This document shows positions 16,590 to 27,032 of a stretch of 64,000 bases of DNA, piece by piece. Below the pieces are notes generated by a model, which saw only the letters and a program-made list of their open reading frames with translations, had not been told where the DNA came from and did not search any database. The position numbers and the translations under genes are program-made. Numbering within the stretch: the first letter of the stretch is position 1; each line of letters opens with the position of its first letter. Origin of the DNA: a phage; the sequence record OZ556245.1. One strand, written 5' to 3'.

Positions 16590-17072
16590 CTAGCGATAAA
16601 AACCAAAATAACGATTAGCTTCAATAATCTTTCTTTCTTCTTCAGATATTCTCCAGCGTAGTCCAACATCAAAATGAGCCCAGACCATCTTAACAAATGC
16701 ATTTATATCTTTAATATCTTCAATAATGAATGTTTTACTTTTAGAAGGTTGACCTGCTAAATTAAGTGCTAATTTAACTTTATCGTCTTCAAACAGGGCA
16801 AAAAGACCATATTCATGAGCTCTTTTATAGCCTTTAATAGTTAAAGCTTCAGAAGAAGAAAACGGTGAATCAGTATTCTGTAAAATATCTTCAGTATGCT
16901 TTATAATTAGAATAACATTTTCTGGATATTTTCTTTCTTTTATATCTTTAATTAAAAGATCCGGATTTTCTGCTAAAGGAATAATTAATGAGCATTTTTT
17001 ATCAAGTGCATTTACTGATTTACCTTCTTTAGACATAAATTCTATTGAATAATGTTTTGCTACTTCAATCAT
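16590..17072 (-). CDS. hypothetical protein (160 aa)
   Basis: ORF track; start overlaps stop of upstream small ORF. Confidence 0.5.
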
Positions 17073-17229
17073 GTGATTTCCTTTTGCCTACTAATGGACC
17101 GTCAGGAATTTTGTTTTCCTGGATATATTTCTCATTTTCTTCCATCATTTTACTGCCAATTTTAAGAAGCAAATCCATTGCTTCATTTGCTTTAGCTTTA
17201 GCCTCTTCTAATGTCATATCTCTGTTCAT
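17065..17229 (-). CDS. small hypothetical protein (about 54 aa)
   Basis: hand-translated [19 protein letters not shown]...; ATGA overlap with upstream stop; missing from track. Confidence 0.35.
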
Positions 17230-17429
17230 GATTTATCCCCATAGATATCTCTCATCAATTTAAGCGCTGAGCGTTCTAATTTCTTTTCTTTCTCAGCACT
17301 AATCATTGATTTCATCAATTCTTCTGATTCGTTCTGCATTTCTTTATTTACCTGTTCAACCCAACCATCGTCAATGTACATTGAGTTTGGTCTATTGAAC
17401 CATTCAAGCATCTTCTTCAGAACTTTCAC
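17226..17429 (-). CDS. hypothetical small protein (67 aa)
   Basis: ORF track. Confidence 0.45.
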
Positions 17430-17901
17430 TTGTTTTACCTAAAACAATAGTAGGAGCATCGTCAAATTCATGAATTTTTAGCAATTTTGGATTTAAATTA
17501 TTCCATACATAATAAATGAAGTATGATAAAGCATCTTCACTCGCAATTATAAATTTATTTCCTTTATCTATTTTCCAGTCATATACTGAATCATATGAAT
17601 ATAATGGCAATGGTTTATTGTTATAATATGATTCAGCAACATCAATATAGTTAGATTTAGTAAATGCTTGAATTGACATAAATGGAGAATTTCGTACAGT
17701 TTCAATAATTCCGATCTTTTTAAGTTTTATTTCAACATCTTCTGGAACTGGCATTGAAATAAAATCTTCTACTAGATACATGTTATTATCATATCTTTTA
17801 TCAATTATTACTGCTACTGTAATTGGAATATCTTTAGCAAATGCCATGCTATCACTGCTAATATACATTTCAAACAAAATTGCTTCCATAATTTTCCTCA
17901 A
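17404..17901 (-). CDS. hypothetical protein (165 aa)
   Basis: ORF track. Confidence 0.5.
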
Positions 17902-18236
17902 TCACAAGATGTAGATGAACAACTAGAATCACAAGAACTTCCACATGAATCGCCCGTCCACACATGAACAGGAACATTAGTATCATATGAATCAGAACTA
18001 GACTGTGTATTCTGCGTATTAGATGATGTAGGTGTTGACCAACGCCAAGGATTTTTATAATATTCCTGGGCTTCTTCATAAGTCATAGTAACTGCTTCTA
18101 CTGTTCCATCTCCCATATAAACATATTCAACTACAGTTAAAGGAAGGTAGTCATTTGAAATAGGAACTACACCTTCTCCGGGAGTCGTAGAGAAAAAATC
18201 CGTAAAGAAACTTTTAAACCAATTAAAGATAAACAT
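17898..18236 (-). CDS. hypothetical protein with Cys/Ser-rich C-terminal tail (112 aa)
   Basis: ORF track; tail [17 protein letters not shown]. Confidence 0.45.
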
Positions 18237-18448
18237 TACAAAAAGCCTCTTTGAAATTCGACTCTTTGAAATCCACCCCAGTCAGTGTATCGCATTTCAG
18301 CATTGAACTCGACTGAACCATCTGCATGCATCATGAATGAATGCGTGACGATATCACAATCCCAGCTTTTCATACCCCATTTATCAGAGATAGCTTTATC
18401 AAGAACCTTCTGGAGGTCTTCATTTGGTTTAATCCAGCGATTTAACAT
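18236..18448 (-). CDS. hypothetical small protein (70 aa)
   Basis: ORF track; early promoter upstream. Confidence 0.45.
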   Translation of the reverse strand: MLNRWIKPNEDLQKVLDKAISDKWGMKSWDCDIVTHSFMMHADGSVEFNAEMRYTDWGGFQRVEFQRGFL

Positions 18449-18474
18449 AGTGCTCTCCTCTATAAGATAATTTT

Positions 18475-18504
18475 ATTATACCATACTTGTTTTGGAAAGT
18501 AAAC
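18475..18504 (-). promoter_or_regulatory. early promoter
   Basis: GTTTAC ... TGGTATAAT immediately after soc terminator. Confidence 0.55.
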
Positions 18505-18520
18505 CGGTAAAATGAAAAAA

Positions 18521-18540
18521 GGACTCCCGGAGGAGTCCTT
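18521..18540 (-). terminator. intrinsic terminator after soc
   Basis: GGACUCCUCCGGGAGUCC hairpin followed by UUUUUUCAUUUU. Confidence 0.65.
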
Positions 18541-18546
18541 GAATTA

Positions 18547-18792
18547 TTAACCACCAGTTACTTTCCACAAATCTTCGTTTGCAGTAATCCATGCATCACG
18601 TTGATTTTCTTCGTATACAGTAGTATATGCTGCTTTTTCTGAAGGGAATGTCTGGTAATGAGCACCAGAAATTTTGTGAACGTCAGAATAAAGAGGGAAA
18701 GCTACAGAAATTTCCTTTCCTTCAATTTTCTTATTTCCATCTAATTTTTGCTCAAATGTTTTAATATTAACATAACCGCGAGTACTAGCCAT
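18547..18792 (-). CDS. soc: small outer capsid protein Soc
   Basis: 81 aa; late promoter TATAAATA about 30 nt upstream; strong hairpin terminator downstream. Confidence 0.85.
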   Translation of the reverse strand: MASTRGYVNIKTFEQKLDGNKKIEGKEISVAFPLYSDVHKISGAHYQTFPSEKAAYTTVYEENQRDAWITANEDLWKVTGG

Positions 18793-18808
18793 GTAATTCT
18801 CCTTTTAT

Positions 18809-19018
18809 TTAAATTACATGACTATTTATAATAAATTCTTGCGGAACGTTAAAATACCCAATTTTAGTTAATATAACAACATCACCGTTAATAATTACCG
18901 GAGAATAATCGGCTGGAGCATTAAACTTCCAATGAGCTCTAATATTATATCCATCAGAACCAAATGCTCGACTAGCCGGTTTCCCGGCTTTTTGCCATGC
19001 ATAAAAATCAAATTTCAT
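18809..19018 (-). CDS. hypothetical small protein (69 aa)
   Basis: ORF track. Confidence 0.45.
   Translation of the reverse strand: MKFDFYAWQKAGKPASRAFGSDGYNIRAHWKFNAPADYSPVIINGDVVILTKIGYFNVPQEFIINSHVI
18823..18830 (-). promoter_or_regulatory. late promoter for soc (TATAAATA)
   Basis: TATAAATA on transcribed strand about 30 nt upstream of soc ATG. Confidence 0.55.
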
Positions 19019-19215
19019 TTTGAATGCTCTATAATTAATTTTAAGGCTTCTTCATGCACCTTACCTAATTGTATATGTCCAGTTTTAATTGTGTAAGCTT
19101 TGTGGAGCTGATTAGATAAGAGCTCACATACGAGCTCTTTGTCATAATTTTTAAATAGCTGGTCAATACGTTTCTTGTGGGCTTTCTTAAGCTGGCGTTT
19201 ATTTAAACGAGCCAT
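19015..19215 (-). CDS. hypothetical small basic protein (66 aa)
   Basis: ORF track. Confidence 0.45.
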   Translation of the reverse strand: MARLNKRQLKKAHKKRIDQLFKNYDKELVCELLSNQLHKAYTIKTGHIQLGKVHEEALKLIIEHSK

Positions 19216-19733
19216 TAATAACCTCGGTCTTGACGAGCGAAGTTTTCAGCATTTTTCAGATAATAAAGTTTAAAGATTTCTTCAGCCGTAAGACCGAGAC
19301 CTTGGAACATGTTCAGAACGAAATGAAGAATATCAATCATTTCGAATTTAATTTCCAACTGGTCTTGTGGAGACAAATCAGTAATCAGAGTTTCACGTCG
19401 TTCACCATGCTGAGCTTTCCAAGGCTTCCATACAGCAGATGCATCTTTTTCACCATTGCTCATACCACCAAGAGAAGTCAATAGTTCGCGGAATTCATCA
19501 TCAATATAATCTTTCTGATTACGCAGCCAATCAACAACTTCACCCGCAGTAGCCAAATCATCAGGATGACGGTTATATTCAGGTTTATCTTTAGCTAAAC
19601 GAACCTGCAGAGATTTCTGCATATCAAGCATAACCTGCAGCGGGTCTTTTTCATCACCGAGAATATCCCAGTATTCATTTTGAGCTTTATCAGCGCCTTC
19701 AATCAGTTGTGAACATTCATTAAAGTATGCCAT
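19215..19733 (-). CDS. 56: dCTP pyrophosphatase (dCTPase/dUTPase, MazG-like)
   Basis: ORF track 19215..19826 trimmed to internal ATG (MAYFNECSQ...) with AAGGAAAAATA SD, giving about 172 aa as T4 gp56. Confidence 0.8.
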   Translation of the reverse strand: MAYFNECSQLIEGADKAQNEYWDILGDEKDPLQVMLDMQKSLQVRLAKDKPEYNRHPDDLATAGEVVDWLRNQKDYIDDEFRELLTSLGGMSNGEKDASAVWKPWKAQHGERRETLITDLSPQDQLEIKFEMIDILHFVLNMFQGLGLTAEEIFKLYYLKNAENFARQDRGY

Positions 19734-19804
19734 TATTTTTCCTTTCAATTCATGGGTTAGTAGATTAATTATACAATAAATATATAAAGCAATAAGGAGG
19801 ATAT

Positions 19805-20001: not shown

Positions 20002-21030
20002 TTAAATCTTAGCATATTTAGATAGCCGCATTTTAGCCATCAACCCTTGGGCAATATTATTTTTCATATATTCCATAATTTGTTTAGGGGTTGCACCTTC
20101 CTTTCTAATCATATCATTAACATCTTTTGATTTCCAGGGAGATTTGTCCCAAAACATAACCCTTTCTCCTGCATCAACTAATTTAGTCATTCGTTTAATA
20201 GTGTCAGGATGACGAGGTTCATTATCTAAAACCCATACACGTCTATCTTTAAATGGAACAATTTCTAGGTCTAATTGACCACCCGTAATAGCTATACCAT
20301 TTTCAATAAAAAGTGAATCTATAGGTCCTTCTAGAACATATACATCACCATCTTTGACTCGTTCGACTCCATAGATTTTTGTTGCCTCAGGATAAGCTTT
20401 GATGGTGATATATTTTTGAGGAGCATCTTTCTTTAATGCACGTCCTTGAAAAGACTCGGCTTTTCCGTTAGCATTATAAATTGGAATAACAAGACGAGGC
20501 TCAGGTATTTCCTTTTTATATGTTCCTGGCGCTATGCTATTAACTAATTTAGGCCATTCGGTTGTAAACCAAAGATATTTCCATTTATTCTTTGGAATAC
20601 AACGAGCTTTTACATATTTTATAATTGGATGGTCTTCCGCCAGTTTATCTAATCTAATGCATGACGGAAGAGATTTAATTATTTTCTTCTCAGGTTGTTT
20701 AGGAAGTTCTTTAGGTTTTTCTACTGGACGACTTTTACCTTTTTCTTTTCTTATTTCAAAGATATACTCACGATATAAATCAGGTTCAAACTCCTTTAAA
20801 TATATTCCGATTGGTGCATGATAGTTGCAGTTATAACAATGAATATTTCCTTCATTATTATCACCATAATACCATCCACGGGCTTTATTTTGGTCGGTTT
20901 TTGAATCTCCACAAACAGGGCATCTAAACCGTAATTTAAAAGTTGAACTATTATTTACTTGTGTGAATTTAGGTAAATGAGCTAATGCACGGTATGCAAA
21001 CTCATTATCAATCCAAGGTATTGATGACAT
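20002..21030 (-). CDS. 61: DNA primase gp61
   Basis: 342 aa as T4 gp61; N-terminal zinc ribbon CPVCG...CYNC. Confidence 0.9.
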   Translation of the reverse strand: MSSIPWIDNEFAYRALAHLPKFTQVNNSSTFKLRFRCPVCGDSKTDQNKARGWYYGDNNEGNIHCYNCNYHAPIGIYLKEFEPDLYREYIFEIRKEKGKSRPVEKPKELPKQPEKKIIKSLPSCIRLDKLAEDHPIIKYVKARCIPKNKWKYLWFTTEWPKLVNSIAPGTYKKEIPEPRLVIPIYNANGKAESFQGRALKKDAPQKYITIKAYPEATKIYGVERVKDGDVYVLEGPIDSLFIENGIAITGGQLDLEIVPFKDRRVWVLDNEPRHPDTIKRMTKLVDAGERVMFWDKSPWKSKDVNDMIRKEGATPKQIMEYMKNNIAQGLMAKMRLSKYAKI

Positions 21031-21032
21031 TT

Positions 21033-21197
21033 TTACTCTTCTTTTTCTTTAGATTCCTCTTTTTTCTTTTTAGGAATCTGTTCAGGACCTTTATTTACTA
21101 CAGCGCCTGATGTTGTTCCAGTGGAGATATTTTCAGGATTACCACCTGAATCTCCAGCTACCATATCTTCTTTAATAAATTCTTTATATGTTTTCAT
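21033..21197 (-). CDS. small Lys/Glu-rich protein (54 aa)
   Basis: hand-translated MKTYKEFIKEDMVAGDSGGNPEN...; GAGGTTAAT SD; absent from track. Confidence 0.35.
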   Translation of the reverse strand: MKTYKEFIKEDMVAGDSGGNPENISTGTTSGAVVNKGPEQIPKKKKEESKEKEE

Positions 21198-21198
21198 A

Positions 21199-21555
21199 TT
21201 AACCTCTATTCATAAAAGCATTAAAAATTTGGTCATCAATCGATGGAACAGCAACCTTTTCGGCATCATTTAGCAAATCATTAATTTCATCAGATAGCAT
21301 AACGCATGTACCTTTATTTCCTGTAATTGTTACTGCACAATTACGAACGTTTTCTTTATCAAATTTTAGGTTAATATTTTCGTAGTGAAAATCCTTTAAT
21401 GCCGAATATATTTTTAAAATGAAATTGTCTTTTACTGCAATAAACCCAACTTCACTATTAAAACGTGGTTCATGGAAACTGTAATAAACCTTTTCATCTA
21501 TAAAATCGTATGAAATTTTTTCCATTTTTAAATATGAAAATTCAGAACTGTACAT
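21199..21555 (-). CDS. hypothetical protein (118 aa), T4 61.1/61.2 position
   Basis: ORF track; synteny. Confidence 0.5.
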   Translation of the reverse strand: MYSSEFSYLKMEKISYDFIDEKVYYSFHEPRFNSEVGFIAVKDNFILKIYSALKDFHYENINLKFDKENVRNCAVTITGNKGTCVMLSDEINDLLNDAEKVAVPSIDDQIFNAFMNRG

Positions 21556-21567
21556 ACTAACCTCTAA

Positions 21568-21861
21568 TTACTCACCTACCACTTCAGCGATGATATTTTT
21601 ATTATTAAAGTTTTTATCGCAATACAGAACATAATTATACTGCATTACACCGCCAGACTTAAGCTGTTTTTGCACTTCAGCTTTCATTTCAGGACGATCA
21701 CGCTCAACGATATTCATAATATCTGCTTCAATTTGAGTTTCAACTTCAGTCTGATCTGCAGTCATAGACCATTCACACAAATCTTTGTCATAACCCGCCA
21801 TAGCAGGCTGAGCAGCGCAAGAAGATAAAGCAAAAATTGTAGCAAAGATAAATTTTTTCAT
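21568..21861 (-). CDS. sp: periplasmic protein Spackle-like (superinfection exclusion)
   Basis: 97 aa with cleavable signal peptide, at T4 sp (61.3) position. Confidence 0.6.
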   Translation of the reverse strand: MKKFIFATIFALSSCAAQPAMAGYDKDLCEWSMTADQTEVETQIEADIMNIVERDRPEMKAEVQKQLKSGGVMQYNYVLYCDKNFNNKNIIAEVVGE

Positions 21862-21919
21862 GATAATCTCCTCAGTAGTTTATGTTTATAGTATCTCAAT
21901 TTCCAATAAAAGTAAACAG

Positions 21920-22177
21920 CTATTTTAAAACTTCTGCATAATCACATGTTACAAACTGTTTCTCTAACTTGGCGATTTTACGAAAGTATCTTTTGCATTG
22001 ACGAATCTGTCGCTTCGTAGGGCGCACAGCAAACTTAATAAATTCCACTCGACCAAATGGAGGACTTTCTTCTGCTGGAATATCTAATACCAATTCCCAC
22101 GTATCTACAATAAGTGCTTTGAATTGAGTATTTTTCCTGACATTATACGGAGTAGGTTTAAATAAAACAATATGCAT
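21920..22177 (-). CDS. hypothetical basic protein (about 85 aa), T4 61.4 position
   Basis: ORF track 21920..22219 trimmed to internal ATG to remove overlap with dmd. Confidence 0.45.
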   Translation of the reverse strand: MHIVLFKPTPYNVRKNTQFKALIVDTWELVLDIPAEESPPFGRVEFIKFAVRPTKRQIRQCKRYFRKIAKLEKQFVTCDYAEVLK

Positions 22178-22178
22178 A

Positions 22179-22361
22179 TTATCCTCGGCAATCCACTTCA
22201 CATACTTTCTTGTCATCAATGAAAGCTTTAACTAATGCTTTATTAACTTCAGCGTATTGATTAGTAGCCCATTGAACGTCATCTTTCATCATTGTGATTT
22301 CTTTAGTAAACATGCTTTCGTTCTTAAACCACCCCATAAAAACTACCTTTACCAATTCCAT
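22179..22361 (-). CDS. dmd: Dmd-like small protein (60 aa)
   Basis: 60 aa as T4 Dmd, immediately downstream of gene 41 with own early promoter. Confidence 0.55.
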   Translation of the reverse strand: MELVKVVFMGWFKNESMFTKEITMMKDDVQWATNQYAEVNKALVKAFIDDKKVCEVDCRG

Positions 22362-22390
22362 AACAATCTCCTCATTTAACCAACAAGACT

Positions 22391-22420
22391 ACTATACCAT
22401 AGTCTTGTTGGCTTGTAAAC
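22391..22420 (-). promoter_or_regulatory. early promoter upstream of dmd
   Basis: GTTTAC ... TATGGTATAGT. Confidence 0.5.
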
Positions 22421-23847
22421 TAAAATTTTAATTCATTTGCCAAAGCATCTAACTGAGCTCGAGCAGATTCGTTTCTTTGATAGCGATTCTGTTCAGCCTG
22501 AATCTGCTGTGAACCTGCTACTTCGTTCACTTCAGTTGGAGTAGAATCTTGTTCAATTTCTACCCATTTCTGATTTCCTTTTTGAACACCCATCAAAAAC
22601 TTATTCCATTTATTCTTATCACCGTATCGTGATTTGATTTGCTTAATGAGTTGTTGTTCAGCAGCTGCTAACTCCTCGGTTTCAATGACCGCAAGCATAA
22701 AATCGGCTGTTGCTGGAAGACCGGCAGATTCTGCGATATCGCTCATGTTAACATCAGAAGAATCCCAAGCTTGTTTACCAACCTGTGCTGCAGTCCAAAG
22801 AACAGTTTCAGTTTCAACAGCCAGAGCACGCAATTCCTCTGCGATAGCTTTAACAGTTGTGTAACTATTTTCTGAGTAAACTCTGATGCGGCAAGATTTA
22901 CAAATACCCAGATAGTCAACAATAATGATTGTTGGAACAAAATTCTTCTTGAGCTTCAATTCATTCAAGAGAGACCTGAATGTATTAGCGTCTGCTCCAC
23001 CAGTAGGATACTGTTTAACGATTAAACGGCCGAGAGTAGATTTCTCACGCCATTTTTCCATTTTTCCTTTATACTCAGCGTAAGAAATATGCCCATCATC
23101 AATGTCATCAAGAGAAACATCAAGCATATTAGCGTCAATACGCTTAGCACAGACTTCTTCTGCCATTTCCATGGAAATGTAAAGAACATTATGTCCGAGC
23201 TGCAAATAATCTGCTGCCAATGAACACAGACCTAATGACTTACCGACGTTAACACCAGCCATTAAAACGTTCAGTGTTCCAGTTTCAGCTCCGCCTTTAG
23301 TAATTTTATTTAGAATTTTGAGTTTAAATGGAACCTTACGAGCTTTATTCATATAAGATAGCCAACGTGCTTCGTAGTCATCTATCCAATCATGACCAAC
23401 GTAACTATCAAATGAAATTGATAATGCTTGGCGCATGATGTCAGGAATAGCACCTACATCTGGCATTTTCTTATTTCGTTTTTCTGGAGGAAGCTCAGCA
23501 TTAGTTTGAATTTCAATTATTTTAGACGTAGCATTAAACATCGCCCTTTGCTGAACATATTTTTCTGTTTCTTTTACTAACCAGCTGTGGTCTTCCGGAG
23601 AATCGGCTAGTTTTGAAATAAGTGTTTTTACACCAGAATATTCTGTTTCAGTAAATGAACTATTTTCTAATGCAACATTTAACGCATTAATAGATGGAAC
23701 GCTATGGTATTCATTAACATGAGATTTAATTAATTTGAATGTATTTTTAGCTGGACCACTTTCAAAATATTCTGAATCCATATATGGCCAAACTTTTGAA
23801 AAATAAGCTTGATCAAATATGAGATGGGAAAGAATAATTTCTACCAC
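22420..23847 (-). CDS. 41: replicative DNA helicase gp41 (DnaB-like)
   Basis: 475 aa as T4 gp41; Walker A GVNVGKS. Confidence 0.9.
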   Translation of the reverse strand: MVEIILSHLIFDQAYFSKVWPYMDSEYFESGPAKNTFKLIKSHVNEYHSVPSINALNVALENSSFTETEYSGVKTLISKLADSPEDHSWLVKETEKYVQQRAMFNATSKIIEIQTNAELPPEKRNKKMPDVGAIPDIMRQALSISFDSYVGHDWIDDYEARWLSYMNKARKVPFKLKILNKITKGGAETGTLNVLMAGVNVGKSLGLCSLAADYLQLGHNVLYISMEMAEEVCAKRIDANMLDVSLDDIDDGHISYAEYKGKMEKWREKSTLGRLIVKQYPTGGADANTFRSLLNELKLKKNFVPTIIIVDYLGICKSCRIRVYSENSYTTVKAIAEELRALAVETETVLWTAAQVGKQAWDSSDVNMSDIAESAGLPATADFMLAVIETEELAAAEQQLIKQIKSRYGDKNKWNKFLMGVQKGNQKWVEIEQDSTPTEVNEVAGSQQIQAEQNRYQRNESARAQLDALANELKF

Positions 23848-24219: not shown

Positions 24220-25375
24220 TTAACTGATCTAGGTCAGTTTCTAAATCAGCTGCTGATTTACTTTTGCTTTCTGGAGATTTAAATTTTTCAACCTTTGAGT
24301 TAATCAATTCATCAACTTCAGCTTCAACAATTTCATTACTATCAATAGCACCTAACTGATAAGCACGTTTAATAGCGTCTCGGAATGGTTGATGCTTAAA
24401 TAAAGGACCCCAGAATGTAGTGCAGTTGGTATCTTTTGCACGCCAAGATTTTTCTTCTCGAATCATCTCGCCAGTTTCTTCGTCAAGAAATTCACGAGCA
24501 TACCAGCCATTTTTAGGTTTTACCACAAATCCTAATTCAAGAGCCATATCTAACAATCCAGAATAAGGATCGATACCACCGTCAAATTTAACATCAATAA
24601 AGAATTTACTTTTTTCTTTAACGGTACGAGATTTTTCTACATTTAGAACAAATTGATACCCCTGAAGATCAGAACCATCTTTAATCTGGCGCTTACCGAT
24701 AATGAATACAGTATCAGCCGAATACATTACGCCTGTACCACCTGTCATCACGGTTTTACTGAACATTTCAATTGTTTCAATTGTATGGTTAACCGCAACG
24801 CATGGAATGTTTTTAATACTAAAATAAGGAGTAACAATACGGAATAATGACTTCAGTGATTTAGCACGAGTCATATCTGCCACAGATTTTTCATTCAAGG
24901 CATCTTCCGTTTCTTTCTTAGAAGCCATATTACCGATTGAGTCGATGAATACAATAACTTTTTCACCACGCTCAATAGCTTCAAGCTGATTCACCATATC
25001 AATTTTCAGCTGTTCAACTGACTGAATTGGTGTATGAATTACTCGTTCCGGGTCAACTCCCATGGATCGCAAATAAGCTGGAGTAATACCAAATTCGCTA
25101 TCATAAAATAGACATACCGCGTCAGGATATTTGTTCAAATACGCCGCAACCATAGTCAAAGACATATTTGATTTAAAGTGTTTAGAAGGACCTGCAAAAA
25201 TGGTTAAACCAGACTGCATTCCACCATCAATCGCACCTGAAATAGCGATATTAAGCATTGGGATTTTTGTACGGATTACATCCTTTTCATTAAAGAATTT
25301 AGATGTAGTCAGTTCAGCAGTCATTTTAGAAGTGGAAGCTTTAATCAAACGGGATTTTAAATCTGCAATAGACAT
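24194..25375 (-). CDS. uvsX: UvsX recombinase (RecA/Rad51 family)
   Basis: 393 aa; Walker A GPSKHFKS; acidic C-terminal tail. Confidence 0.9.
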   Translation of the reverse strand: MSIADLKSRLIKASTSKMTAELTTSKFFNEKDVIRTKIPMLNIAISGAIDGGMQSGLTIFAGPSKHFKSNMSLTMVAAYLNKYPDAVCLFYDSEFGITPAYLRSMGVDPERVIHTPIQSVEQLKIDMVNQLEAIERGEKVIVFIDSIGNMASKKETEDALNEKSVADMTRAKSLKSLFRIVTPYFSIKNIPCVAVNHTIETIEMFSKTVMTGGTGVMYSADTVFIIGKRQIKDGSDLQGYQFVLNVEKSRTVKEKSKFFIDVKFDGGIDPYSGLLDMALELGFVVKPKNGWYAREFLDEETGEMIREEKSWRAKDTNCTTFWGPLFKHQPFRDAIKRAYQLGAIDSNEIVEAEVDELINSKVEKFKSPESKSKSAADLETDLDQLSDMEEFNE

Positions 25376-25452
25376 TCATTTTTTCCATAGGCATCATTAT
25401 ATTTTCCTCACTGGTTAAAGATAGAGTAATTATAACACAATAAATTTAGGCA

Positions 25453-26301
25453 TTAATCAACTGCTATTGGATGAATAGCATTAAACTTATGAAACGCTTC
25501 TGATTTTTCTTTGCGCGAAACACACATGCGAAGAACCTTTAATGGCTCGTCTTCTTCACCCAACGATTTTCTCTTTTCAATATTCGATGTTTTCCAACGA
25601 GCTTGCTCTGGAAACTCTCTATTGATTTGCTCAAGAGCTCTATTATGTTTTGAATTACTACGAATTGAACTACATCCGCCAGGAGCCTGTGCTTTTCCAG
25701 ACACAACTAGATATTTGAACAGGGCCAAATGCGGATAACCTTGATTAATTAAATTGAGAAATGCATACATATCTTCGCATAAATCAATTTTTCCATACCC
25801 AATTTGTTCTGTCGTGAGTTTTCCGAGGTCATACCAAGTATTCGTGAATCCATATGAATTTTCACGATAATTACCCCAAGATGAAGTAATTTTAAAAATT
25901 GGTAAACGAGCATGACCATGATAATACCCACAATCCATGGCATCTTCAACGTATTGAATCAATTCATAGAACTGTTCACGAGTTAACTGATTAATTTTAT
26001 CTACGCAGCGACGATCATCTTTCTTTCGCATTGAACTCATACGAATAGTAGTATCATCATCAATCATCCAAATTCGTTGACCTGCATACATATCAGTAAT
26101 TGCTTTACGAGTACCAGCAATTCCATTAACATCATCAGGAATAGTTATAATTTTGGCTCTAGACCCGTAAGCGTCATAATAAGCTTTTTCTTCGTGTTCA
26201 CGTACTACAATATGCGGTTCATAATCAGATGGAAACATATCAAGGGCAGAAACTGCCCCTACGCGTTGATAGCTTGGAATTACGAATTGAATCATTTCCA
26301 C
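25453..26301 (-). CDS. DXD-motif glycosyltransferase at the beta-gt locus (candidate hmC-glucose modifying enzyme)
   Basis: 282 aa; WMIDDDTT DXD motif; sits between uvsX and gene 42 where T4 has beta-glucosyltransferase (351 aa). Confidence 0.6.
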   Translation of the reverse strand: MEMIQFVIPSYQRVGAVSALDMFPSDYEPHIVVREHEEKAYYDAYGSRAKIITIPDDVNGIAGTRKAITDMYAGQRIWMIDDDTTIRMSSMRKKDDRRCVDKINQLTREQFYELIQYVEDAMDCGYYHGHARLPIFKITSSWGNYRENSYGFTNTWYDLGKLTTEQIGYGKIDLCEDMYAFLNLINQGYPHLALFKYLVVSGKAQAPGGCSSIRSNSKHNRALEQINREFPEQARWKTSNIEKRKSLGEEDEPLKVLRMCVSRKEKSEAFHKFNAIHPIAVD

Positions 26302-27032
26302 TCACCGTTATAATCTTTTTTCGCAATATGAGTTTCGCCAGTTTTCCACCAATGGTCAACCAAATAAAAATGACGGGAATACACATGAAGGCTTCCGACA
26401 TTCCATATAATGGAACCTGCTTTATACTGACGAGTTGAATCACCTGCATTCAAATCAGATACTAATTTATCTAGTACGTATTTTTGCCATGCATAATCAT
26501 TACGGAATCCGAAGACCACGTCATTTGAACGCATGCTTACTACTGCATTGACTTTCTTATCACGAATCAGGTACTGTACTGTATTCGTACACATGAAATC
26601 TGACATACCGTCTTTATTGTAGTCAAACTGCATGGATGGACGAGTATAAATCATGATACCACGTCGAGAATCAGGATTTTGACCAAGTTCAGCTAAACAC
26701 ATATCATACTGGGCATAGTTATCTTCTGACCAGATGGCCCAACCATAATTCGAGTTAATTTCGCCTTTAGAAGATGCTACCTGCTGCCAAATCTTCGGTG
26801 TTTCACCCGGAATATCTTTAACAAACAAACTTTTAGATTTATACCATTCAAGTTCATGTTGAATGTATTCATCATTAAGAGCGCCAAAAATAAACGGTTC
26901 ATCTGCTACAAATGATGCACCAATAATTTCAATAGTTTTAACACCAGTTTTATCAACTACGAAATCTTTTTCCTTTAATGCAAGCCCCAAATGAAGACGG
27001 ATTTCTTCAACTGTCATAGAGTCACTAATCAT
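26292..27032 (-). CDS. 42: dCMP hydroxymethylase
   Basis: 246 aa as T4 gp42; position between glycosyltransferase and imm. Confidence 0.85.
   Translation of the reverse strand: MISDSMTVEEIRLHLGLALKEKDFVVDKTGVKTIEIIGASFVADEPFIFGALNDEYIQHELEWYKSKSLFVKDIPGETPKIWQQVASSKGEINSNYGWAIWSEDNYAQYDMCLAELGQNPDSRRGIMIYTRPSMQFDYNKDGMSDFMCTNTVQYLIRDKKVNAVVSMRSNDVVFGFRNDYAWQKYVLDKLVSDLNAGDSTRQYKAGSIIWNVGSLHVYSRHFYLVDHWWKTGETHIAKKDYNGEWK

Follow-up and report, generated by a model that had tools for sequence, protein, structure and literature searches.

Between gene 41 and gene 61, phage T4 carries the small genes 61.1, 61.2 (adfA), sp, 61.4 (tifA) and dmd, and targets have been described for several of their products. 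Dmd (61.5) inhibits RnlA, with the neutralization of RnlA and LsoA taken from literature cited in PMC9391042. Gene 61.4 was renamed tifA, its product being a protein that inhibits the endoribonuclease ToxN (Srikant, Guegler & Laub, eLife 2022, PMC9391042); TifA binds RNA as well as ToxN, and the toxin is thereby trapped in a ribonucleoprotein complex (Guegler et al., NAR 2023, PMC10853763). Gene 61.2 is adfA, which encodes an anti-DarT factor (PMC9391042). The T4 locus has already been named a possible 'anti-TA (toxin-antitoxin) island', and other genes in it have been called attractive anti-toxin candidates (Srikant, Guegler & Laub 2022, PMC9391042). Here we compare with this locus the corresponding islet of a 64,000-nucleotide (nt) stretch of phage DNA (sequence record OZ556245.1; 'the window' denotes this whole stretch), located at positions 21033-22361 between the primase gene 61 and the helicase gene 41. 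The original prediction for this islet, made from the sequence alone, proposed a set of exclusion and probable counter-defence genes.

The T4 61.1-dmd block in the window

We are highly confident that this interval represents the T4 61.1-dmd block in its Tequatrovirus form, with four accessory products and the conserved 61.1-61 pair. The window is collinear with T4 from ~165.8 kb over the map origin to ~63.5 kb, at 89-98% nucleotide identity, and the five open reading frames (ORFs) that had been proposed between genes 61 and 41 (54, 118, 97, 85 and 60 aa) were all present on the minus strand where they had been placed. Alignment of these ORFs with the original T4 61.1-61.5 record (S57514) revealed identities of 98% for gp61.1, 98% for Spackle, 96% for gp61.4 and 98% for Dmd; T4 DNA covers just 75% of the islet because T4 61.2 (AdfA) has 208 aa. 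With counterparts of Spackle, TifA and Dmd in place, the proposal of an exclusion and counter-defence islet, as in T4, was borne out.

The islet with its flanks (20900-22500) matched 510 phage records at ≥90% DNA identity, nearly all of them Escherichia/Shigella/Yersinia Tequatroviruses, the top match being phage vB_Eco_ZCEC15 (99.1%). Four of the five islet products scored above the Pfam gathering score and all five matched PHROG families, while a scan of gp61.1, the 118-aa protein and TifA against NCBIfam gave zero matches even at an E-value (E) of 10. The pooled ratio of non-synonymous to synonymous polymorphism (pN/pS) was ~0.14 for the 118-aa gene and, among Tequatroviruses, ~0.03 for gene 61.1, both from few substitutions and non-independent pairs. 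Taken together, the DNA matches, the Pfam and PHROG families and the low pN/pS values indicate that the five ORFs are real genes rather than chance ORFs. The genes are spaced by 1-12 nt, save for two 58-nt gaps that hold promoter-like sequences.

Conserved Dmd, TifA and Spackle

The identities of the genes rest on homology, and the mechanisms proposed for Dmd, TifA and Spackle are those described in the literature for proteins 96-98% identical to the products encoded here. The 60-aa product, which had been suggested to be Dmd, shares 59 of its 60 residues with T4 Dmd and matched Pfam PF17587 (E 1.3e-45) as well as PDB entry 5hy3_B, 'Antitoxin Dmd' (E 1e-36). By analogy with the 98%-identical T4 protein, it would bind and inhibit the RnlA and LsoA RNase toxins.

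For TifA, the start was assigned to the ATG at 22177, which gives 85 aa; the upstream TTG chosen by the ORF lister gives 99 aa. The protein is basic, as had been noted for an ORF of about this size, because it has 17 Lys/Arg against 9 Asp/Glu residues. It shares 82 of 85 residues with T4 TifA and matched Pfam DUF7279 (E 1.7e-20), and a PDB sequence search with it returned zero matches. The TifA proteins of T2, T4 and T6 (>96% mutually identical) each rescue ToxN toxicity. Interface residue 41 of TifA tunes its potency, Phe (as in T4) being weak and Ser or His stronger, and K55, R56 and R59 are basic RNA-binding residues (PMC10853763). The window encodes F41, the T4-type allele, and keeps K55, R56 and R59. 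If it acts as the 96%-identical T4 protein does, TifA would bind ToxN together with RNA to form an inactive ribonucleoprotein; since F41 marks the weak T4-type allele, full ToxIN resistance would probably require gene amplification, as in T4.

The identification of the 97-aa product as Spackle was confirmed by 98% identity to T4 Spackle over 97 aa, by Pfam PF25676 (T4_Spackle, E 6.8e-45, residues 1-96 of 96) and by the PDB matches 6x6o ('Protein spackle', E 2e-61) and 7cn6, a 75-residue chain that aligns from residue 23. Its N-terminus is a hydrophobic signal-like leader (MKKFIFATIFALSSCAAQPAMA), in which one residue differs from T4. Like the 98%-identical T4 protein, it would be exported to the periplasm and block the gp5 tail lysozyme of a superinfecting phage, leading to superinfection exclusion.

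gp61.1 and the gp23 maturation site

The 54-aa gp61.1 can be divided into an N-terminus (MKTYKEFIKE) that resembles a capsid-targeting sequence (CTS), a core (residues 11-42) that resembles the cleavage site and N-fist of gp23, and a tail rich in Lys and Glu, in line with the composition originally noted for this ORF. It matched the PHROG families phrog_1823 (short form, E 7e-34) and phrog_2086 (long form, E 2.6e-16), and no Pfam family. The leader agrees at 8 of 10 positions with the CTS of T4 internal proteins IPII and IPIII (MKTYQEFIAE), including the Ile-x-Glu site of the prohead protease. Among 1992 ATG-initiated T4 ORFs of ≥30 aa in six frames, the motif MKT[YF]xEF is present only in ipI, ipII, ipIII and 61.1, and it occurs once in the window; furthermore, T4 61.1 is identical to ipI over its first 22 nt.

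The core was found to be related to gp23. Residues 2-38 of gp61.1 align with residues 57-93 of gp23 at 43% identity (BLASTP E 1e-8), and in this alignment I-K-E/D of gp61.1 falls on the gp23 maturation site L-T-E/A. The alignment score of 80 compares with 29 ± 4.5 for shuffled sequences, and none of 2000 shuffles reached it. gp23 was the best non-self match of gp61.1 in the T4 six-frame translation; in the PDB it was the sole match with E <0.01 for the single gp61.1 sequence (E 0.0085) and the sole molecule that the family profile reached at E up to 1 (E 1.4e-5). Against 2387 six-frame segments of T4, a hidden Markov model of the gp61.1 module, built from the family members described below, reached gp23 at E 5e-14. 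Directly after its cleavage site, gp23 has the first part of what in the mature protein is the 'N-fist', an element of 25 residues that contacts four neighbouring subunits and helps to form the Soc binding site (PMC9958956). As a second relative of gp61.1, gp24 was not supported (E 5.7).

An exhaustive profile search of 1.84 billion proteins yielded 51 representatives of the gp61.1 family. Many of these have 120-165 aa and carry the module C-terminally (phrog_2086), and a tblastn search with one such long form matched 609 phage records, from Aeromonas, Vibrio, Acinetobacter, Klebsiella, Enterobacter and Mosigvirus-type coliphages; in Aeromonas phage Aeh1, a gp61.1 of 155 aa is encoded by the sole gene between 41 and 61. 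The family module reads (hydrophobic-x-E)-x-MVAGDxGGxxxNIAxGxxSGxVxxKGP, followed by a Lys-rich tail, a pattern that the gp61.1 encoded here fits. In 61 of 66 members, no more than 0-1 residues separate the end of the hydrophobic-x-Glu motif from the MVAGD core, and gp23 has the same spacing. The N-terminal domain of the long homologues matched no Pfam family and has no counterpart anywhere in T4 or the window, so that its retention by T4 as a separate gene was rejected. Some NCBI records call gp61.1 homologues 'major capsid domain-containing protein', from which it appears that automatic pipelines had already caught the gp23 similarity. A search of the literature available to us on gp61.1 and gene 61.1 found nothing relevant, and a review of T4-related genomes is silent on 61.1.

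As distant T4-like phages have a long homologue as the only gene between 41 and 61, 61.1 probably does not belong to the accessory genes and probably represents the ancestral occupant of this interval across the Straboviridae. The suggestion that the unassigned ORFs of the islet are candidates for counter-defence thus held for the 85-aa product, which is the already published ToxN inhibitor TifA, and probably fails for the 54-aa one. The sequence of gp61.1 points to the capsid maturation machinery and not to a toxin, and the conserved hydrophobic-x-Glu motif suggests that members of the family are substrates of the prohead protease gp21. gp61.1 is a truncated member of a Straboviridae-wide family, and the module conserved in this family is a copy of the maturation site and N-fist of gp23. 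Building on the observed protease motif, gp23 homology and shared leader, we infer packaging, cleavage and function as follows: tentatively, the family may consist of gp21 substrates, of which the Tequatrovirus form has swapped an N-terminal domain of ~100 aa for a 10-aa CTS leader, enters the prohead and is cut after Glu10. Such a cut would free a 44-aa peptide made of a gp23 N-fist copy and a Lys-rich tail, expected in virions with Asp11 as its first residue (DMVAGDSGGNPENISTGTTSGAVVNK); gp61.1 would then be an unrecognised component of the head or of the ejected material or, alternatively, a capsid-protein mimic. Two observations weigh against packaging, namely that T4 61.1 RNA is early with the protein undetected in a proteome time course (PMC9697503 supplement), and that the islet has no late promoter.

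The same early transcription and lack of a late TATAAATA promoter would suit a replication accessory factor that works with the primase and helicase, the likeness to gp23 and CTS being functionally irrelevant, as would the fixed 41-61 position in distant genera and the 61.1 stop codon 2 nt ahead of the primase start. We consider this unlikely: gp61.1 has no likeness to DNA-replication proteins and no Pfam or NCBIfam match, its significant similarities are limited to gp23 and the internal-protein leaders, and its position is not decisive for a replication role, since that early cluster also includes the head gene 40.

Less likely again is an early counter-defence decoy, in which gp61.1 displays the N-terminal segment of gp23, so that a host sensor for gp23 is saturated or misled. 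Its homology to gp23 residues 62-96, the early 61.1 RNA of T4 and the known counter-defence genes that adjoin it are compatible with such a role, and capsid-sensing defences are known: Lit is activated by the Gol region of gp23, with ~100 N-proximal gp23 residues stabilising EF-Tu binding. The Gol core, however, presumably lies just downstream of the gp23 segment homologous to gp61.1 and not inside it, which counts against a decoy. Furthermore, 41-61 synteny is kept across Aeromonas, Vibrio, Acinetobacter and Klebsiella phages, unlike that of fast-turnover anti-defence genes, and a decoy would not need the hydrophobic-x-Glu protease motif found in nearly all members.

A half-size AdfA paralogue in the 61.2 slot

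The protein comparison with T4 61.1-61.5 called for by the original prediction gave 96-98% identity for four ORFs, but the 118-aa ORF is not T4 61.2. Its product aligns only to residues 109-208 of the 208-aa T4 AdfA, at 35% identity (BLASTP E 1e-9), and ends in the same 14 residues (SIDDQIFNAFMNRG). Against the Pfam AdfA model PF23813 it scored 34.6 bits (cut-off 27; E 1.6e-8) over positions 113-211 of 211 only, and it does not have the architecture of full-length AdfA (~208-216 aa, both model halves). In PHROGs the protein belongs to a separate family, phrog_4122. As judged from its sequence, the gene is a half-size AdfA paralogue and not the counterpart of the T4 61.2 product.

The family of the short protein is narrow, with five clusters at 90% identity that are all intact at 118 aa, ≥75% identical and provided with a precomputed PF23813 hit. 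In tblastn searches, the short gene (residues 1-104) was found in 333 phage records, 295 of them at ≥80% amino-acid identity, and long AdfA in 487. An AlphaFold2 (AF2) model of the protein is compact, with five strands and three helices (predicted local distance difference test score, pLDDT, 77; predicted template modelling score, pTM, 0.68). When this model was compared with the PDB by Foldseek, no match improved on E 0.1 or on a template modelling (TM) score of 0.36, so that the fold offers no functional lead, and a PDB sequence search gave zero matches. The gene looks constrained and functional, judging by its pN/pS of ~0.14 on few substitutions.

In phages T-01, GiZh and vB_Eco_Some, long adfA and the short gene occur in tandem. 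The two genes of T-01 share their last ~50 nt, and this shared stretch continues into '...GGTTAATATG', where the next gene begins; in T-01 this junction lies after full-length adfA and before the short gene. The sequence TAGAGGTTAGTATG, directly after the sp stop codon of the window, nearly repeats TAGAGGTTAATATG (21195-21208), the 3' end of adfA with its coupling junction; it was probably left behind as a scar when full-length adfA was cleanly deleted, and it provides the short gene with its ribosome-binding site. Full-length adfA was not found elsewhere in the 64-kb window. These arrangements suggest lineage-specific deletion of either paralogue, the long adfA having been lost from the window and the short gene from T4.

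The N-terminus of the short protein was also compared. A 1-nt difference in T-01 frameshifts the first 10 codons of the short gene, whose annotated start there corresponds to Met11 of the window (21525), and pLDDT is <50 for residues 1-4 of the AF2 model; residues 1-10 may be dispensable.

That the 118-aa ORF is a decaying adfA remnant with no function of its own is improbable: such decay would explain the coverage of only half of the AdfA model, the absence of any full-length adfA from the window together with the scar-like 3' junction copy just upstream, the lack of DarTG1 protection from the short form in T2, whose islet is 95.9% identical, and the frameshifted first 10 codons in T-01, but the ORF is intact in all five clusters and well conserved across the 295 records, it has a low pooled pN/pS and a compact predicted domain, and its coexistence in tandem with an intact long adfA marks it as a paralogue rather than a truncation product. 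The preferred reading is thus that of an intact paralogue, which appears to keep the C-terminal half of AdfA, the half that in AdfA holds the specificity residue. By analogy with AdfA, we infer that its most likely partner is a toxin of some kind, possibly a variant of DarT.

Proposed mode of action

The accessory part of the islet consists of small genes that are transcribed early in T4 and lie as an insertion between gene 41 and the conserved 61.1-61 pair. The role expected for each of the four products is to neutralise a threat from the host or a rival phage through direct protein binding.

Several observations weigh against this reading. The three conserved proteins differ from those of T4 by T34N as the only change in Dmd, by A24V, V69A and I83V in TifA, and by K53E as the sole difference in mature Spackle. 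In the short AdfA-like protein, Cys73 aligns with the His/Arg specificity position of AdfA (ENVRNCAV against ENIINHIA) and is not His; RB69 AdfA gains DarT1 binding through R164H, the native Arg being inactive, and T4 has His165 (PMC11257639). Furthermore, T2, which is described in the literature as lacking an adfA homologue, becomes sensitive to DarTG1 when adfN is deleted. The T2 islet matches that of the window over its full length at 95.9% DNA identity, and T2 presumably carries the same short AdfA-like allele; the sensitivity of T2 without adfN implies that the short protein does not block that DarT1 at native level.

Promoters and modularity of the islet

An early promoter upstream of dmd drives dmd-tifA in T4 (PMC9391042), and 61.2, sp, 61.4 and dmd are early in RNA and protein (PMC9697503 supplement). 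The spacer between 41 and dmd in the window holds an early-type promoter that appears to match the one described in T4, with a -35 element TTTACA from 22419, a 17-nt spacer and a TG-extended -10 element TATAGT that ends at 22391; it scored 10/12 in a sigma-70-type promoter scan. The same spacer, between the gene 41 stop and the dmd start, contains a perfect 12-bp hairpin with an 8-nt loop (22380-22391 / 22400-22411; repeat I3, 100% complementary). This hairpin overlaps the -10 element and is not followed by a T-run; it could act in RNA stability or processing, or have a regulatory role. The gap between tifA and sp contains the sp ribosome-binding site and a putative T4-early-like promoter (GTTTAC, 18 nt, TACTAT), which scored below the threshold of the sigma-70 scanner. 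The translation-initiation regions of sp and dmd (21856-21874 and 22356-22374; repeat D2) are near-identical (TGAGGAGATTRTYATGRAA). These features are consistent with sp and dmd being cassette-like units, each with its own promoter and ribosome-binding site. No intrinsic terminator was found in 20900-22500, and the late promoter TATAAATA is absent from the islet, its closest minus-strand copy being at 18823.

The islet is modular: only long adfA is present in T4, only the short gene in the window and T2, and both in T-01, GiZh and vB_Eco_Some. Phages SH7 and ADUt have extra cassettes between tifA and sp: both encode an 84-aa goF-like protein (phrog_2980) there, and ADUt additionally encodes one of 60 aa (phrog_37915). 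This arrangement fits an accessory-gene hot spot. These cassettes are absent from the window, which has the minimal five-gene form.

Flanking sequences

The coordinates of the islet features and of the flanking genes are summarized in Table 1. The segment 19794-21243 is 96.5% identical in DNA to T4 17725-19176. Two T4 genes are missing from the flanks, dam (T4 16825-17725, between genes 56 and 61) and segF (sites 19773-19794 and 18830-19252, respectively), and a 282-aa glucosyltransferase ORF (25453-26301) replaces T4 segA and beta-gt (window 25363-26310). The gene 56 (dCTPase) region, 19252-19773, is only 77% identical in DNA to T4 against 91-98% in the adjacent segments, which indicates an exchanged allele. 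ZCEC15, the nearest islet relative, has dam and two further ORFs beside the primase gene; as the window lacks these, the flanks are mosaic.

Table 1. Positions of islet genes, intergenic elements and flanking genes in the window
Feature	Position	Strand	Basis or remark
Gene 61, DNA primase, 342 aa	20002-21030	-	Downstream flank; label from ZCEC15 annotation
Gene 61.1, 54 aa	21033-21197	-	phrog_1823 and T4 gp61.1 match
Short AdfA-like gene, 118 aa, T2/RB32 'ORF033c' type, phrog_4122	21199-21555	-	T4 61.2/adfA slot
Scar-like junction repeat TAGAGGTTAGTATG	21553-21566	-	Direct repeat D3
sp (61.3), Spackle, 97 aa	21568-21861	-	T4, Pfam and PDB matches
tifA-sp intergenic region, 58 nt	21862-21919	-	Read from sequence
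tifA (61.4), 85 aa	21920-22177	-	T4 gp61.4 and DUF7279 match
dmd (61.5), 60 aa	22179-22361	-	T4, Pfam and PDB matches
41-dmd intergenic region, 58 nt	22362-22419	-	Promoter scan, inverted repeat I3
Gene 41, replicative helicase, 475 aa	22420-23847	-	Upstream flank; DnaB-like helicase in ZCEC15; collinear with T4

Significance and comparison with known systems

The idea of a counter-defence islet was right and had already been published, for a very well-sampled phage genus; the islet is therefore one more sequenced copy of a published locus, and its value lies chiefly in annotation. The phage is predicted to resist RnlAB and LsoAB, to have weak protection against ToxIN (F41 TifA), to exclude superinfecting T-even phages via Spackle and to have no full-length AdfA. 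Two points go beyond the literature searched, the intact short AdfA-like gene and the relationship of gp61.1 to CTS leaders and the gp23 N-fist. Long and short AdfA form a family of two paralogues in the 61.2 slot, with losses that differ between lineages, so that the published statement that T2 lacks an adfA homologue needs qualifying, and the short form is a ready candidate for an inhibitor of some other toxin. gp61.1, a hypothetical protein of a sixty-year-old model phage, joins two head-maturation sequences and is conserved across the family.

Compared with the T4 block 61.1-61.2(adfA)-sp-61.4(tifA)-dmd, the islet has the same position between 41 and 61, gene order, strand and early promoter upstream of dmd, and differs in having the 118-aa paralogue in the slot that full-length adfA (208 aa) occupies in T4. 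The islets of T2, RB32 and ZCEC15 have the same five genes, including the 118-aa form, with 99.1% (ZCEC15) and 95.9% (T2) DNA identity and essentially no difference, and the window is a further member of this allele group. The 118-aa protein shares with AdfA (PF23813; RB69 AdfA, T4 gp61.2) the C-terminal half, the last 14 residues and the genomic slot, whereas it lacks the N-terminal half and has Cys at the His/Arg specificity position. gp61.1 has a leader with an Ile-x-Glu cleavage motif in common with the CTS internal proteins of T4; in contrast to these, it is early, has no late promoter near it, is unreported in virions and has a gp23-like peptide body instead of a globular basic protein. 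With T4 gp23 (residues ~62-96) its module aligns over L-T-E/A-E-I-G-G-D...G-P at the same protease-motif spacing, while the HK97-fold body of gp23 is absent and the module is followed by a Lys-rich tail.

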